A stretch of 39,366 bases of DNA. It comes from a virus. Each line of letters starts with the position of its first letter. Positions within the stretch are counted from its first letter, which is position 1. Where the stretch lies: the IMG/VR virus record IMGVR_UViG_3300045988_130974, positions 1-39,366 of that record; one strand, 5' to 3'. Both the position numbers and the translations under genes were made by a program. Shown one piece after another: positions 2,038-27,021 of this stretch. The notes under the pieces were generated by a model that saw only the letters and a program-made list of their open reading frames with translations, was not told the DNA's origin and did not search any database.

Positions 2038-2082
2038 TAAAAATAGACTTAAATCGAACATATGTACGAAAGGAAAATATTT

Positions 2083-3177
2083 ATGGCTTCTTTTACAAAA
2101 CGGAATGGAAAGTGGCAAGCTCGTATCAGCTGGCATGATGAAAATGGGAAACTCCACCAGAAAGCAAAGTCTGGATTTGCTACCAAAGCGCAGGCCAAAG
2201 ACTATGCAACTCAAATGGAAAATGAGCTGATCAATGGCGTTGATATTGCAGCAGACCCGGTTTTTGCCGACTACTTTAAAACGTGGTGTGAAACTTATCG
2301 CTTGCCGAAAATATCAAAGGCAACGGCTCGCAACTATATGAGTTATTACCGAGTTATCACAAGTTATTTTGGCGAAACTAGAATCAAGCAGATCAAGCGC
2401 AGCACCTATCAGCAATTTTTAAACGACTATGGCAAAGATCACTCGTTGGGAACAATGAAAGAAATGACGTCAAAAATTAAAGCTTGCGTTAAATCAGCTA
2501 TTGCAGACGGTATCATCACTAAAGACTTTACCTATAATGCAAATATAACCTATGACAAATCGTTGACACGAAACCCTGAGTATTTATCTATTAATGAGCT
2601 TAAACGGCTTATATCAGCCCTTAATGACGATTTAAAACCAGATAACGTTAAGCCTTATATCGTTTTGACTGCTATTTATACCGGCGCAAGATTTTCGGAA
2701 ATTATTGCTTTGACCTGGAAAGACGTTGACTACCTGCACCGAACGATCACGATTAATAAATCCATTGACTATAAGTACAATACCGGATTTAAGCCAACCA
2801 AAAATGAAAGTTCAAACAGGACAATTCGAGTTAATGGTGAGCTGCTTAAGATATTGTCGCAGCTAAAAGTTAATCAAACGCCACTTTTGTTTGCTAAAAC
2901 TCCGCAATCTTTTCGAACTATTTTCATAAAAAAAGTTAACGCCTATCTTAAATCGACTATGGAACGAATCGGAATTAAAAAACGCGATTATACGTTTCAT
3001 GCACTACGCCACAGCCATGTTGCGTTTCTTTTAAGTCAAGGAATCGATATTTACGCAATTAGCAAACGATTAGGGCACTCAAATATGACGACAACTAGCA
3101 ATGTATATGCTTACTTGATAGATGAATATAAGCACAAGCTGGACGACGAAATTGAGCAGAAATTAGCGCAATTATAG
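2083..3177 (+). CDS. int: Tyrosine recombinase (phage integrase)
   Basis: N-terminal SAM-like domain (FTKRNGKWQARISW). Catalytic motifs TGARFSEI, HALRHSHVAFLL and LGHSNMTTTSNVYAY. AGGAAA RBS before the ATG at 2083. Confidence 0.95.
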   Translation: MASFTKRNGKWQARISWHDENGKLHQKAKSGFATKAQAKDYATQMENELINGVDIAADPVFADYFKTWCETYRLPKISKATARNYMSYYRVITSYFGETRIKQIKRSTYQQFLNDYGKDHSLGTMKEMTSKIKACVKSAIADGIITKDFTYNANITYDKSLTRNPEYLSINELKRLISALNDDLKPDNVKPYIVLTAIYTGARFSEIIALTWKDVDYLHRTITINKSIDYKYNTGFKPTKNESSNRTIRVNGELLKILSQLKVNQTPLLFAKTPQSFRTIFIKKVNAYLKSTMERIGIKKRDYTFHALRHSHVAFLLSQGIDIYAISKRLGHSNMTTTSNVYAYLIDEYKHKLDDEIEQKLAQL

Positions 3178-3182
3178 CTATC

Positions 3183-3376
3183 GTTGCACTAATATTGCAC
3201 TGCTAAACTATAAATGCTGTTATATCAACGTTTTAACGATGTTAAATACATTGTCGATAAAGGTCAGCATAGTGTTATATAGTTTTTTATAATGCACAAA
3301 TATGCATATCAGCTCGATTTGCTGACCTAGAATGATATATAAGTTCCCTAACCGTTGCACTTTTTGTTGCACAAAA
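3183..3376. other. Probable attP: four TTGCAC/TGCAC arm-type repeats flanking a 9-bp inverted repeat
   Basis: cgTTGCACtaataTTGCACtg at 3183..3203 and cgTTGCACtttttgTTGCACaaaa at 3352..3376. AGGTCAGCA (3261..3269) pairs with TGCTGACCT (3320..3328), enclosing ATGCAcaaataTGCAT. The region lies immediately downstream of int. Confidence 0.45.
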
Positions 3377-3378
3377 AA

Positions 3379-3399
3379 CGGCCGTCATAATGACGACCG
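3379..3399 (-). terminator. Intrinsic terminator directly after the mini-CRISPR unit
   Basis: The minus strand reads CGGTCGTCAttaTGACGGCCG (9-bp stem, one mismatch) followed by TTTTTTGTG. Confidence 0.6.
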
Positions 3400-3486
3400 C
3401 AGCCCCACTCATGGTGGGGATAACTTTTTAAAAATCCAAACATCTAATATCAATATTGGGATCACGCCCACATACGTGGGGATAAC
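3397..3486 (-). CRISPR. Cas-less single-spacer mini-array with type I-E-like repeats (repeat 3459..3486, spacer 3425..3458, degenerate terminal repeat 3397..3424)
   Basis: The minus strand reads GTTATCCCCACGTATGTGGGCGTGATCC, then the 34-nt spacer CAATATTGATATTAGATGTTTGGATTTTTAAAAA, then GTTATCCCCACCATGAGTGGGGCTGCGG. The first 11 nt of both repeats are identical and both form CCCAC/GTGGG hairpins. The period is 62 nt. The repeat architecture matches the lactobacillus I-E class GTATTCnCCACGTATGTGGnGGTGATCC as recalled from the literature. Confidence 0.7.
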
Positions 3487-3513
3487 AATTTAAGTATATC
3501 TCAGCAGACTAAT

Positions 3514-3546
3514 AAAGTAACCCCTGTCAGGTTGCTTTATTTTTTA
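3514..3546 (+). terminator. Intrinsic terminator AAAGTAACC-cctgtca-GGTTGCTTT + ATTTTTTAT
   Basis: 9-bp stem (one G-U pair) with a strong T tract on the plus strand. In the minus direction it also follows the stop of the 52-aa gene, with a weaker T tract (TTTATTA). Confidence 0.6.
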
Positions 3547-3568: not shown

Positions 3569-3727
3569 TTAGCCATGACCTTTGCCGCCGTATTTTTCAA
3601 TAATTAGTTTAATTGCCTCTACTTGTCGCAGATTAAAGACAATCTGTTCATAATGATTTCTTCCATCATATCCTCGGCTAACTACTTCGCCGTGTTGATT
3701 AAAATAAACATTTTTTTGCTCACCCAT
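3569..3727 (-). CDS. Small orphan protein, 52 aa (below the ORF-track size cut-off)
   Basis: Hand translation gives MGEQKNVYFNQHGEVVSRGYDGRNHYEQIVFNLRQVEAIKLIIEKYGGKGHG. GAGGT RBS 9 nt upstream of the ATG at 3727. Same strand as, and downstream of, the 65-aa gene. Confidence 0.5.
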   Translation of the reverse strand: MGEQKNVYFNQHGEVVSRGYDGRNHYEQIVFNLRQVEAIKLIIEKYGGKGHG

Positions 3728-3845: not shown

Positions 3846-4043
3846 CTATTTTTCCGAAATAATGCGATATGTTTTTTCAAAGATTTCTTTTTTTACTGGC
3901 CACATTTCTCCTTCAACGCCAATAATAATCCAATCTCCAGTATTAGCATGCATTACCCCTTCAAGCGTTTGAATATCCATAGGCTTATCTGTTTGATAAG
4001 CTTCAACTGGTATATATTTTTTTACTACTTTATACAATTTCAT
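3846..4043 (-). CDS. Small protein, 65 aa, resembling the PGDYG-type small beta-barrel phage proteins
   Basis: AAGGAAG RBS. The motif AYQTDKPMDIQTLEGVMHANTGDWIIIGVEGEMWPVKKEIFEKTY resembles the GDY/W..G..GE..P....F..TY signature of PGDYG-family proteins (recalled, not searched). Confidence 0.6.
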   Translation of the reverse strand: MKLYKVVKKYIPVEAYQTDKPMDIQTLEGVMHANTGDWIIIGVEGEMWPVKKEIFEKTYRIISEK

Positions 4044-4109: not shown

Positions 4110-4196
4110 AAGCCCTACACACGGCCAATGTTAATTAAGAAGAGGACTCACCTCTTTTCTTTTTATTGATATTTTTTGGTGCCATGTGTAGGGCTT
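4110..4196 (-). terminator. Long nested hairpin: 16-bp outer stem plus inner AAGAGG/CCTCTT hairpin, with a T tract on the minus strand
   Basis: AAGCCCTACACACGGC (4110..4125) pairs with GCCATGTGTAGGGCTT (4181..4196). On the minus strand it is followed by TTTTTTGTAT. The inner hairpin 4139..4156 is followed by TTTCTTTTT on the plus strand. Confidence 0.55.
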
Positions 4197-4303: not shown

Positions 4304-4900
4304 CTATTTACTGGAGCTACTAGTGGAGCTAGATTGTCCCCCAGCTATGAGATTTTGTACGCTATATGGCTCGTAGTAGCTTACGACTAAGTTACGAAAG
4401 CTGTATGTTGTCGTAGTATTATTGCCAATGCCAATCTTGATATATGCCACATTTTTTAGATTTGAATTGTCAAAAAGCCGTTGAGCACTTCGCAGACCAT
4501 TTTTGTTGCTAAAAATATCGTCCAACCCAACCGGAACCCCTTGATTATTCACAAGCTTATAGTTACCGTTGCTATCAACATCCCAGTATGACAACTCGTT
4601 CATATTTTTGTCTATAAAATTACACAGCAAGCATGGCCCTTGATCGCTTGCTGTAGAGGCGATATCTTTGATTTCAGCCGTCACACAAATCGGAACCCCT
4701 TTGAAGACGGGCACAATGACCAAAGCATCAGTCCTCCACCCAGAGGCTTTGGTCCAATTTGGATAAGTGATAGAAAGCGGGCCATTAACCGCTGGTTTAG
4801 TCATCAAATCAGTTAAATTAGCAATTGAAAGTTTGTCAGTAGTATGATAGTTAGCTCTGGCCTTGTCCATAAGAGAGGTCATAGTGCTGCTAAGCGACAT
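4304..4900 (-). CDS. Fibre/receptor-binding-like protein, 198 aa, post-lysin
   Basis: The N-terminus MSLSSTMTSLMDKARANYHTTDKLSIANLTDLM is paralogous to the N-terminus of the preceding 140-aa protein. Ser-rich C-terminal tail. GAGGGGG RBS. Overlaps the upstream gene by 11 nt. Confidence 0.5.
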   Translation of the reverse strand: MSLSSTMTSLMDKARANYHTTDKLSIANLTDLMTKPAVNGPLSITYPNWTKASGWRTDALVIVPVFKGVPICVTAEIKDIASTASDQGPCLLCNFIDKNMNELSYWDVDSNGNYKLVNNQGVPVGLDDIFSNKNGLRSAQRLFDNSNLKNVAYIKIGIGNNTTTTYSFRNLVVSYYEPYSVQNLIAGGQSSSTSSSSK

Positions 4901-5312
4901 ACGCTAAGCCCCCTCTCATAGTGCGGAAGAAAGACGTTAAGAGGGCCTTAGCTACCCCCCCTAATTTAGTCCAGTCAGACCAACCATTAGTGCTATTTTG
5001 ACGTGCCCAGACTACGTTGTTAACGAAAAAAAGTTGTGCTAAATTGCCATTCTTATCTTGAATGACATCGAGCTGTATTTTGTCGTCATTCGCCACGTTA
5101 GCGGGCTTACCTGAAAGGAACGCACCCGTTGTGTAATACCGAGCTGGTGTGGTTAAGTTACTAGCAACACTTGCCGCGCCGATGTTAACAATTTTGGTTC
5201 CTTCGTAAGAAGATAGTAAAGCAATTGCATCGCTAATTTTCAATGCTTGGTCAGTCTGTGTCACTTTACGCACAGAATTCATGAGTGCCTGCATCATATC
5301 ATTCAAACTCAT
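4890..5312 (-). CDS. Fibre tip / knob-like protein, 140 aa, post-lysin
   Basis: The N-terminus is MSLNDMMQALMNSVRKVTQTDQALKISDAIALL. The C-terminal VWARQNSTNGWSDWTKLGG resembles the W..W..L ending of pyocin-knob-type fibre tips (recalled). Confidence 0.5.
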   Translation of the reverse strand: MSLNDMMQALMNSVRKVTQTDQALKISDAIALLSSYEGTKIVNIGAASVASNLTTPARYYTTGAFLSGKPANVANDDKIQLDVIQDKNGNLAQLFFVNNVVWARQNSTNGWSDWTKLGGVAKALLTSFFRTMRGGLAYVA

Positions 5313-6111: not shown

Positions 6112-7032
6112 TTACTCAAACTTGCCGTATGCCTCACCCGTGCGAGCATCGCGGACAGCTACATAGCCATAGCCGTTACCACGTGGTTGACGTACATAGA
6201 CAAACTCGTTGCCTCGCGACCAGGCATCATACTTGATCACACTGCCCGCTGGCAGAACTGCAATCGTAGATGCACTAGGTCGAGCGCCCCACCGCAAGTG
6301 CAAGGCCGTATTGCTGATAAATTTGCCGTCTTCAGCCGTCCACTTGTCGCCTAAGTTGTCTACCCAAGTCTTTGGCACAGCAACTGGCTTAGGCGTTGGC
6401 GTACTGATGACGGTCTTAGATTCCGGCGTGACAGTAGCATTAGTGTAGAATCCGCTAAAGTCGTATGACATATCAACGCCATTGCCAGCGATGTTGTAGT
6501 TACTTGAGAACTGCCATGTACCCACGTTGTCAACACCAGGCTGACTGACACCATAGTTGGCAACCCACTTGTTTTTGGCGATCAGCTGAGCAGCATTGAG
6601 CCGGCCTTGCCAGAACCAAGATGCCATCGAGTAAATGTCTACCTTAGGATAACCGGAATCCTTGACCGCTTGTAAGAACGCATTAGCATCACTGGTTGCA
6701 TACTTGGCGTTAGCTTTATCTTCAATATCCAGTGCTAATACTGAATCTGGCCCTAAACCAAACTTTTTAGCATGGTCGGTAAACCACTTAGCCTCGTTAC
6801 GTGCGTCTTGATTGCCGTTAAAGCGTGCGTAGTGATAGCCGTGTACAAGCAGTCCCACCGCCTGTGCATCATTAATTTGGGCTTGTGCCTTAGGATTTAC
6901 ATACGCATCACCATCTGCTGATCCTTGTGTTAGCTTAACGATTACGGCTTTAACGCCTGCATTTTTAGCTGCTTGAAAAAAGCTGACAGTATCTGGCTGA
7001 TACCCAGATACGTCCATGACGAGATTAGCCAT
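6112..7032 (-). CDS. Endolysin: GH25 muramidase with C-terminal SH3b-like cell-wall binding domain
   Basis: MDVSGYQPDTVSFFQAAKNAGVKAVIVKLTQGS...HGYHYARF is GH25-type. The C-terminal ...VLPAGSVIKYDAWSRGNEFVYVRQ... is SH3b-like. AAGGGAGG RBS. Follows the holin. Confidence 0.9.
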   Translation of the reverse strand: MANLVMDVSGYQPDTVSFFQAAKNAGVKAVIVKLTQGSADGDAYVNPKAQAQINDAQAVGLLVHGYHYARFNGNQDARNEAKWFTDHAKKFGLGPDSVLALDIEDKANAKYATSDANAFLQAVKDSGYPKVDIYSMASWFWQGRLNAAQLIAKNKWVANYGVSQPGVDNVGTWQFSSNYNIAGNGVDMSYDFSGFYTNATVTPESKTVISTPTPKPVAVPKTWVDNLGDKWTAEDGKFISNTALHLRWGARPSASTIAVLPAGSVIKYDAWSRGNEFVYVRQPRGNGYGYVAVRDARTGEAYGKFE

Positions 7033-26256: not shown

Positions 26257-26363
26257 AATTGAAACTGATGCATAAGCAGCACGCCAACGACCACTGTCAA
26301 CGTACACGCTAAAACCATTTATTAAATCAACGAAAAATAGTTTTATTTTTTGCCCGTAGGCAA

Positions 26364-26444
26364 TGGAAATGGTAGGAATCGAACCTACGAACCCGAAGGA
26401 ACGGTTTTACAGACCGTCGCGTTTTCCATCTTCGCTACATTTCC
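26364..26444 (-). tRNA. tRNA-Tyr (anticodon GTA), class II with short extra arm, no encoded CCA
   Basis: Hand-folded cloverleaf. Acceptor GGAAATG/CATTTCC, 3-bp D stem GCG/CGC with GG in the loop. Anticodon stem ACGGT/ACCGT with loop CTGTAAA. Extra arm CC-TTCG-GG. T arm GTAGG-TTCGATT-CCTAC. Discriminator A. Confidence 0.9.
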
Positions 26445-27021
26445 AAAACCCGCCGGCGTTGATAAGGAACACCATGCCGGAAGGATTATATGCAAAGGAT
26501 TATGCAACCCGTTTCAAATTATGCCATCCCTGGCAAAGGATAGGTAGTGGACTCGCACCACTTTTTGCATGCTGCTAACGCCGGTAGATCGTTCAAGTAA
26601 CGTTAGCAACAAGCCCACCTGGGACCTTCCAACTATCTGTCGTGTCTTCCAGATAGTAACACCGTAAGACGGAATCGCACCGCCTCGCAAATGATCAGTA
26701 TTGGAGCGATCAAGTTTAAAGGTTTACGGAAGTAATCATTTGCCATCTTATACGGTATGAAAAAGCAAGTTTCCTTGCTTTAGTAGGTAAAAAGTCGCTT
26801 TGCAATCGCGAATATTTTTTATTGCGCATGCAAGCCTAGAAATCAAAGTATGACTAAATTAAACAATCGTCTTGAAAGGATTTCATTTCCAACAAATTTG
26901 AAAGACCATCGGAACAGAAAGGTTATATGCCATCTCTGGCACAATACCAATATACCGCATTTTCAAGGTTTATTTAATCCCCTCTTAGTACCCCAATTGG
27001 TACTACCTTATATACCACTTT
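26445..27021 (-). ncRNA. Candidate large structured non-coding RNA (ROOL/GOLLD-like context)
   Basis: 577 nt with no credible ORF on the transcribed strand and many perfect hairpins: ACTATCTG/CAGATAGT, TGCTAACG/CGTTAGCA, TAGTACC/GGTACTA, CCGGC/GCCGG. Two T-arm look-alikes are present (GGCGG-TGCGATT-CCGTC and AGTGG-TGCGAGT-CCACT). Abuts tRNA-Tyr on the same strand. Confidence 0.4.

Follow-up and report, generated by a model that had tools for sequence, protein, structure and literature searches.

A cas-less mini-array beside the phage attachment site

We analysed the whole of IMG/VR virus record IMGVR_UViG_3300045988_130974, a stretch of 39,366 nucleotides (nt) hereafter called the window, with a focus on a short element that has the anatomy of a one-spacer type I-E CRISPR array. 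The element occupies the minus strand from 3502 to 3372 and forms a self-contained candidate transcription unit in which a promoter block, a first repeat (R1), a spacer, a degenerate second repeat (psiR2) and a terminator follow one another:

3487 to 3502, minus strand: promoter block GAGATATACTTAAATT, with a -10-like TATACT at 3498-3493; the block ends 6 nt before R1
3459 to 3486, minus strand: R1, GTTATCCCCACGTATGTGGGCGTGATCC, a 28-nt repeat of I-E type with an intact handle
3425 to 3458, minus strand: spacer CAATATTGATATTAGATGTTTGGATTTTTAAAAA, 34 nt, GC 0.18, with the predicted guide seed at its 5' end
3397 to 3424, minus strand: psiR2, GTTATCCCCACCATGAGTGGGGCTGCGG, the terminal degenerate repeat, hairpin kept and tail lost
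3372 to 3400, minus strand: intrinsic terminator with a 10-bp stem, GCGGTCGTCA/TGACGGCCGT, and a T run; it overlaps the psiR2 tail, and the scan places the stem at 3400-3378

The stem of R1 pairs CCCAC (3480-3476) with GTGGG (3471-3467) around the loop GTAT and is followed by GTGATCC (3465-3459), which, following published work on the L. crispatus I-E system, we take to be the 7-nt 5' handle left by Cas6e. Position 21 of R1 is C where the canonical base is G, and the closing pair of the stem is therefore gone. In psiR2, CCCCAC (3419-3414) pairs with GTGGGG (3408-3403) around a 5-nt loop, and CTGCGG, the first part of the terminator stem, stands where the handle would be. The two repeats start 62 nt apart; their first 11 nt are identical and their tails differ. 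Downstream of psiR2 the strand reads GTCGTCATTATGACGGCCG and then the T run, and the terminator stem appears in both the minimum-free-energy (MFE) and the centroid folds. We rejected the long-range pairing of R1 with psiR2 in the MFE fold of the whole unit as an artefact of two near-identical stems that is uninformative on Cas6e substrates. An Rfam scan of the unit gave no match to CRISPR-DR or any other family. Because a strict -35/-10 scan misses the promoter block, its promoter activity is putative.

The first-pass annotation of this DNA, made from the sequence alone, had given the coordinates and sequences of the repeat, spacer and second repeat correctly on the minus strand. Reading R1 against psiR2 confirms its description of an identical 11-nt start, a retained hairpin and a degenerate tail; the intrinsic terminator that it placed at the end of the unit is found by both the scan and the folds, and the TATACT that it noted upstream of R1 is present in a block that is conserved across a family of related loci described below.

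Relation to host type I-E repeats

A scan of one genome per species (GTDB) with the query TWWTCCCCACNNNNGTGGGNGTGATCC returned 112 stretches, nearly all of them Lactobacillaceae arrays. The closest genuine repeat to R1 is GTATTCCCCACGTATGTGGGGGTGATCC, with 3 mismatches, so that the annotation's I-E-like 28-mer does have a near counterpart in hosts. This repeat is known from arrays of at least eight species overall. Arrays in Lentilactobacillus, Liquorilactobacillus oeni and a Limosilactobacillus sp. contain 5-35 copies of it, and that of the Limosilactobacillus sp. (L082) adjoins a cas2-cas1-cas6e-cas5-cas7-cse2 operon. The I-E geometry that the annotation had read from a 28-nt repeat and a 34-nt spacer also holds, the 62-nt period of the unit agreeing with periods of 61-62 nt in host arrays. 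The stem-loop followed by GTGATCC that marks I-E arrays is present in R1, and psiR2 has the stem without the handle. Within the window the R1 28-mer is single-copy, and none is expected in 100 shuffles even with 3 mismatches allowed.

Two complete I-E Cas protein sets, used as tblastn queries against the window, gave nothing (best E = 0.29). The annotation's statement that the 39 kb contain no cas gene thus stands for type I-E; other cas types were not searched exhaustively. Nor does a host-type leader precede the unit, the block upstream of R1 being unlike any of 64 host I-E leaders. With neither an I-E Cas homologue nor such a leader, the unit is best described as an orphan mini-array borne by a mobile genetic element (MGE) and not as a CRISPR-Cas locus.

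Plasmids of L. plantarum, Pediococcus damnosus and Loigolactobacillus backii (PLSDB hits H97 and H101-H105) likewise hold one or two I-E-type repeats without cas genes, and repeat mimicry may be common among Lactobacillaceae plasmids.

Phage context and host

On the minus strand the genes run from tail, holin and GH25 lysin through four small or unknown open reading frames (ORFs) to the mini-array and the phage attachment site, attP. Past attP, on the opposite strand, lie the integrase (2062-3177, plus strand), a DUF5067 lipoprotein and a CI-like repressor. The mini-array, set between the lysis genes with their adjoining ORFs and the attP/integrase region, is in the classic moron position of temperate siphoviruses. 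Its immediate surroundings are as follows:

3249 to 3371, minus strand: attP region with GTGCAAC direct repeats, probable integrase arm sites
3511 to 3541, minus strand: terminator-type hairpin with a symmetric 12-bp stem (reported on the plus strand), closing the upstream 52-aa ORF (3569-3727)
3569 to 3727, minus strand: 52-aa ORF just upstream of the unit, without a family match and with a good TTGCAA-N17-TATAAT promoter
3846 to 4043, minus strand: 65-aa PGDYG-like ORF, small and of moron type, upstream of the unit

The hairpin at 3511..3541 divides the 52-aa ORF from the mini-array, and a weak -35-like TTACTT comes from its 3' arm. At the matching place in homologous phages, before the conserved promoter block, the terminator is clearer. 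No informative Pfam or PHROG match was obtained for the ORFs nearby (52 aa, 65 aa PGDYG-like, 198 aa and 140 aa). Which gene stands just upstream of the unit varies from one related phage to another, as would befit an accessory or anti-defence islet. Elsewhere in the window, ARAGORN and Rfam both find a tRNA-Tyr with a GTA anticodon (26363-26445, minus strand).

A related prophage on a 246-kb host contig (L159) matches the window for about 130 nt beyond the terminator, to ...CTGACCTTTATCGACAATG (~3267-3249), after which the lysogen contig runs into a host gene. Since the two diverge only there, the unit lies inside the phage beside the att crossover, as the annotation had proposed, and is not host flank. 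The phage was also found as circular-size contigs of ~39.3 kb in three metagenomes, and an episome of L. mucosae A1 (NZ_CP058957.1, 'plasmid unnamed3'; L167) is a circular 39,346-bp relative that has its own version of the unit and is 90% identical to the window over 43% of the first 12 kb. Although its record describes a non-mobilizable plasmid, NZ_CP058957.1 has integrase, holin, lysin and tail genes and is the circular genome of a temperate phage; the 'tet(C)' call that PLSDB attaches to one of its hypothetical phage proteins looks spurious.

The lysin, the Rha regulator and the 65-aa ORF group, at 90% identity or more, with proteins assigned by name to L. mucosae, and on these sequence relationships the host is the gut bacterium Limosilactobacillus mucosae. 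Type I-E is present in 12 of 93 strains of this species, in which I-C strains also exist and CRISPRs without cas genes have been reported (PMC7016874). A type I locus has also been reported from L. mucosae LM1.

A family of related units on phages and relaxase elements

Using the repeat core together with the psiR2-terminator junction, GTGGGGCTGCGGTCGTCN{3,5}TGRCGGCC, we gathered about 25 related loci from phages with at least four different integration modules and from elements with MobL relaxases (L. mucosae 6A and metagenomes). Because it recurs at about 25 independent loci, the unit is not a chance pair of hairpins. Its common parts are a promoter block, [G/T]ATATATACTTAAAT, a first repeat with GTGATCC, one to three spacers of 32-35 nt and a terminal repeat whose 3' stem arm passes directly into an invariant terminator. 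The promoter block is retained ahead of the first repeat both in MobL elements and in phages whose upstream genes are unrelated.

Conservation within the family is selective. GTGATCC is invariant in 16 distinct family repeats, even where the 5' part of the repeat is scrambled, and the stem is 86% paired. Position 21 of the first repeat is C, T or A and not G, with loss of the closing pair, in 10 of the 16 distinct repeats and in most phage first repeats, and the siblings L150 and L061 have an exactly canonical repeat. All 13 distinct family members compared have an identical GTGGGGCTGCGGTCGTC in psiR2, where the loop is free to vary. The L159/L167 lineage has exchanged the stem CCCAC/GTGGG for CCCGC/GCGGG. 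The parts that are conserved (handle, stems, psiR2 3' arm and terminator) are those that a CRISPR RNA (crRNA) needs.

Upstream of the unit there are at least three unrelated genes, and downstream at least four att/arm-site modules (GTGCAAC, GTACAAC, TGGGACAC and TAGACAC types). This modular persistence across att modules and relaxase elements favours selection over a role as an att site or a relic. A relic would be a fragment of a host trailer or of a mini-array upstream of cas3, acquired by imprecise excision or recombination, or else a part of att, and would be carried neutrally; the first-pass annotation had likewise offered a captured trailer or an att mimic. The position of the unit suits such an origin: it is ~130 nt from the att crossover, a place at which host DNA is captured by imprecise excision. 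In hosts, terminal repeats and mini-arrays also keep the hairpin and lose the tail, and the cas-less CRISPRs of L. mucosae genomes (PMC7016874) point the same way. However, the unit is present in free circular phage genomes, its promoter and terminator are kept across the att modules and on non-phage elements, and its handle and stems are invariant whereas loops and flanks diverge. Capture may therefore account for the origin of the unit but not for its persistence, and we consider an inert relic very improbable as its present-day role.

Some members of the family are reduced. L157 consists of promoter, psiR2 and terminator only, a solitary repeat, and four others (L155, L158, L160 and L163) retain psiR2 and terminator alone, behind other sequence; psiR2 with its terminator is thus the sole universal part. 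These reduced forms are what a pure decoy would lead one to expect, that is, a target-free RNA whose hairpins would soak up Cas6e and Cas7 into dead-end complexes and so lower host interference. Solitary I-E repeat units have been shown to inhibit I-E systems (PMC10651486), and the departures of R1 and psiR2 from consensus could promote aberrant complexes. The window unit, however, is not a solitary repeat, most members have a full handle and a spacer of canonical length (32-35 nt), and the spacers have invariant positions that a decoy does not need. We therefore judge it unlikely that the unit is a decoy and nothing else.

Several variants stand apart from this pattern. About 150 nt upstream of the psiR2-terminator in L155 and L158, the promoter-R1-spacer part is replaced by a different candidate small RNA, with a TTGACA-N17-TAGCAT promoter and the hairpins GGTGCACC...GGTGCACC and CCCCTTAG...CTAAGGGG, that ends in the common psiR2-terminator. 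Just upstream of the I-E-type unit of NZ_CP058957.1 (L167 3418-3445), and at the equivalent place in L159, lies GTGCTTTCAGCACGCGGATTGAAAT, which comprises a 5-bp hairpin, then GGATTGAAAT, which we take to be the conserved 3' end of type I-C repeats, and then a 33-nt AT-rich stretch (CTATAATTAAATTAGGC...). These two loci may hold a chimeric I-C and I-E mimic array; no I-C-like motif of this kind occurs in the window. A second phage group (L004, L012, L016 and L018 from IMG/VR; also L010 and L011/L013) has the same architecture with a different terminator: an I-E repeat with handle, a conserved spacer, GGAGGACACTGT...CTGGATCTTTATAAT, that occurs in point variants, and a degenerate repeat fused to the terminator. 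Other viral contigs have further small I-E arrays.

The family shares one AT-rich spacer lineage

The last spacer of every family array belongs to a single homologous family, of which three types recur:

Type A: CAATATTGATATTAGATGTTTGGATTTTTAAAAA, in the window
Type B: CAATATTGATATTAGGGATATTGCTTTATAGCAA, in L002, L006, L015, L061, L162 and others
Type C: CGATATCAATATGATGTTTGGATTTTAAAGAGA, in L003, L006, L017 and others

Types within the family start CAATATTGATATTAG..., AAATATAGATATT..., TGATATTAATAT... and CGATATCAATAT..., and arrays with two spacers pair different variants from it. Across 18 variants, positions 3-6 (ATAT), 9-10 (AT), 12 and 14 are invariant and positions 1, 2, 7 and 8 vary. 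Mean GC is 0.21, as against 0.44 for 1146 host-array spacers, just 3.9% of which reach 0.27 or below. The annotation had called the window spacer AT-rich and unique; the first term is apt, and the second has to give way to a lineage common to many phages.

By eye the spacers resemble the repeat-proximal end of I-E leaders (...GGGATCTTTTAGT), a homology that we rejected: with a hidden Markov model of 64 leaders, phage spacers score no better than shuffles or 1097 real spacers, and Smith-Waterman scores between spacers and leaders are mostly non-significant against shuffles.

Searches for a target

We found no protospacer for types A, B and C in INPHARED (50,697 phage records). PLSDB (72,556 plasmid records) also yielded none, its sole real match being the unit of the L. 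mucosae A1 phage itself. Exact-core scans of IMG/VR gave no protospacer, the extra matches being unrelated 18-20-mers, and the window together with 1.6 Mb of fetched relatives held none for the spacer family. A 10-nt match at 4164-4173 was rejected as a self-target, since it is at chance level and mismatched in the seed. In the opposite direction, ~1300 host-array spacers match the phage family at chance level only, so that no I-E host array examined targets it.

These searches bear on the annotation's suggestion of a guide against a competing phage, in which the crRNA would direct Cascade-Cas3 at a rival L. mucosae phage or plasmid and so bring about superinfection exclusion. Virus-borne mini-arrays of this class are established (PMC6858448), and the family itself offers an example. 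MobL arrays hold none to two extra unique spacers of ordinary composition (GC 0.39-0.56) ahead of their type B spacer, and spacer 1 of the MobL array L153, TGACCACATAGGGGGTGTCGTAGTACCCCTCT, is 94-97% identical over 29-33 nt to sites on small lactobacillus plasmids, among them NC_006399.1 and NZ_CP097643.1. This spacer also resembles a spacer in a genuine array of another species (L078 4390-4414), and from this similarity the two appear to be aimed at one conserved plasmid site; family arrays can therefore hold real anti-MGE guides. The AT-rich lineage behaves otherwise. Neither the window spacer nor its relatives have a protospacer in INPHARED, PLSDB, the IMG/VR cores or the fetched L. mucosae phages, their composition is far more AT-rich than that of MGE-derived spacers, and they change by point changes and indels, as homologues do, and not by replacement. 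Because the L. mucosae mobilome is thinly sampled, the absence of a protospacer is no proof against an inter-MGE weapon, which we regard as somewhat unlikely for the window unit.

A probable repeat mimic that may regulate host CRISPR

Taken with its anatomy, these data indicate that the unit is very probably a functional repeat mimic that exploits host I-E systems. We propose that a temperate L. mucosae phage carries it as a small-RNA gene of moron type, built as a mimic of a one-spacer I-E array. Its own promoter would drive a transcript that its own terminator would stop. In I-E hosts Cas6e would cut this transcript after each hairpin to give a 63-nt crRNA-like RNA composed of GUGAUCC, the 34-nt spacer and the 22-nt psiR2 hairpin, and no further product would be expected because psiR2 has no handle. 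The RNA would be assembled into host Cascade and would send it to an AT-rich site of promoter type, most likely a host I-E cas promoter by analogy with Cracr elements and viral crRNA-like RNAs (crlRNAs; Liu et al., bioRxiv 10.1101/2024.10.29.618823; Shmakov et al. 2023, 10.1101/2023.03.03.530964). It would also vie with the crRNAs of the host for Cas proteins, and the outcome would be an RNA anti-CRISPR that shields the phage or prophage.

A regulatory role seems to us the most likely one because the spacer is very AT-rich, promoter-like and drawn from a lineage common to many phages. That the unit acts by a Cracr-type regulatory anti-CRISPR mechanism is a possibility that we favour tentatively, since it accommodates the anatomy and its selective conservation, a composition like that of promoters, the multiplexed variants and the precedent in the literature.

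Comparable units occur in the hosts. In the Lactobacillaceae I-E loci L138 and L173, a promoter, a repeat with handle, a spacer and a repeat with degenerate tail all lie upstream of cas3. The best off-self match of the L138 spacer (mini-array at 4838-4928) covers 16 of 20 informative positions and lies 86 nt upstream in its own promoter, just after TATAAT and next to GAA. The mini-array of L173 (902-985) stands behind the motif GATATACT, similar to the phage promoter block. L094 also has a mini-array upstream of cas3 (~6645-6720), and the spacers of these host mini-arrays are 21-34 nt long. All three look like CreR-type autoregulators.

Six observations weigh against a Cracr-type mechanism. 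First, in 10 I-E loci, none of them from L. mucosae, neither the regions upstream of cas3 and cas8e nor the leaders contain a match to the family spacers above background. Loci from other taxa reached through Cas7 matches, likewise without a target, were L138 (L. frumenti-like), L135-L137 (L. vaginalis), L141 (Parascardovia), L143 (L. viscerum), L164 (a Lactobacillus of 34% GC), L169 (an uncultured species of 48% GC), L173 (Lentilactobacillus), L176 and L178; L. fermentum DR9 (L168, a PLSDB record) was also examined and has no target, and Cas7 searches gave no L. mucosae entry among the matches listed. Second, the target matches of the host mini-arrays are only suggestive when set against shuffled controls, 16 in L138 against a shuffled maximum of 17 and 12 in L173 against a shuffled mean of 12.9. 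Third, the variable spacer positions 1, 2, 7 and 8 are seed positions, so that the mechanism needs the added assumption that targets differ between strains. Fourth, the absence of the closing G from R1 and the 5-nt loop of psiR2 could impair Cas6e cutting; in the Salmonella Cracr array a one-nt loop change did so. Fifth, the hairpins have no covariation support: they are conserved by identity, a test of R1 found no double changes in register, and the CCCGC/GCGGG variant was left out of the count because it is shifted by one base. Sixth, no known anti-CRISPR (acr) or aca gene lies beside the unit when the neighbouring ORFs are compared with Pfam and PHROG.

The spacers, described as conserved, hexamer-periodic and promoter-like, might instead steer Cascade to a regulatory site, likewise AT-rich, at another place in the L. 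mucosae chromosome, in neither cas genes nor rival elements, the target being another defence system or a gene whose silencing helps the lysogen. For L167 and L159 such a role would extend to chimeric I-C and I-E repeat mimicry in one transcript. We hold this version to be distinctly unlikely. Among the options that the first-pass annotation had listed, a guide for a host locus and an RNA anti-CRISPR are the best candidates that remain.

One group of host loci departs from the usual I-E layout. In L135-L137 (L. vaginalis-like), cse1-cse2-cas7-cas5-cas6e form an operon, and the 10 kb around it lack cas3, cas1, cas2 and an array. The operon is flanked by genes for a 418-aa Helicase_C protein, a HaeIII-type restriction-modification pair and PemK, together with an IS605 element and a large gene resembling a relaxase. 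These loci may represent an effector-only I-E module on a mobile element.

Probiotics and starter cultures make use of lactobacilli, whose native I-E systems are under development for genome editing; widespread hijacking or silencing of I-E by phage and plasmid RNAs would affect phage resistance, lysogeny and the efficiency of editing tools. The family offers a compact natural crRNA cassette of promoter, handle, guide and hairpin-terminator fusion, and its variants (solitary repeat, one to three spacers, altered stems) are a ready-made mutational series. If the target is a cas promoter, RNA anti-CRISPR regulation would extend to Lactobacillaceae; if it is another host locus, the unit would represent a new form of phage control over host genes, with Cascade as a programmable repressor for lysogenic conversion.

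Comparison with known systems

One of the closest published likenesses is to Cracr elements, which are borne by MGEs outside CRISPR-cas loci and without cas genes and, like the window unit, combine a repeat-like part with an intact handle, a spacer-like part and a degenerate repeat. The family shares with them arrays of one to three related spacer variants, Cracr arrays being reported to combine variants of one spacer (bioRxiv 10.1101/2024.10.29.618823). I-E examples of Cracrs are known, including a Salmonella prophage array, and host loci have cognate mini-arrays near cas3. The window spacer differs in being full length (34 nt, against 21-24 nt in the Salmonella case), the host clade here is Lactobacillaceae, psiR2 is fused directly to an intrinsic terminator, and no acr neighbour was recognised. 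Of the Cracr feature of at least nine protospacer-adjacent-motif-proximal matches to a CreR/CreA spacer or to a cas or toxin promoter, the 10 I-E loci from outside L. mucosae gave no instance.

In L138 and L173, host CreR-type crlRNA mini-arrays upstream of cas3 have their parts in the order seen here, with a similar -10 motif in L173. They lie inside cas loci, however, and are predicted to target their own promoter, whereas the window unit is phage-borne and its spacer is unrelated to recovered host spacers. With the virus-borne mini-CRISPR arrays described for interviral conflict (Medvedeva et al. 2019, PMC6858448; Faure et al. 2019), the unit has in common one or two spacers, a virus genome without cas genes and use of a host effector, and a sibling MobL array has a plasmid-matching spacer. 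The spacer match to related viruses or plasmids that defines that class is seen only for the extra MobL spacer and not for the spacer lineage of the window. RNA anti-CRISPRs (Racrs), which are solitary repeat units and include validated I-E cases (Camara-Wilpert et al. 2023, PMC10651486), likewise mimic repeats on prophages under their own promoter, and the sibling L157 qualifies as a true solitary repeat. With two repeats, a conserved spacer of canonical length and an intact 5' handle, the window unit looks like a guide and not a bare decoy.

MGE-borne mini-arrays, Racrs and Cracrs have thus already been described, but not from this phage group. Lactobacillus terms are absent from the main texts of Liu et al. 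and Shmakov et al., and Lactobacillaceae go unmentioned in these main texts and in Camara-Wilpert et al. The particulars that the present family adds are a module in which hairpin and terminator are fused, a conserved AT-rich spacer lineage, and the coexistence of that lineage with genuine anti-plasmid spacers.

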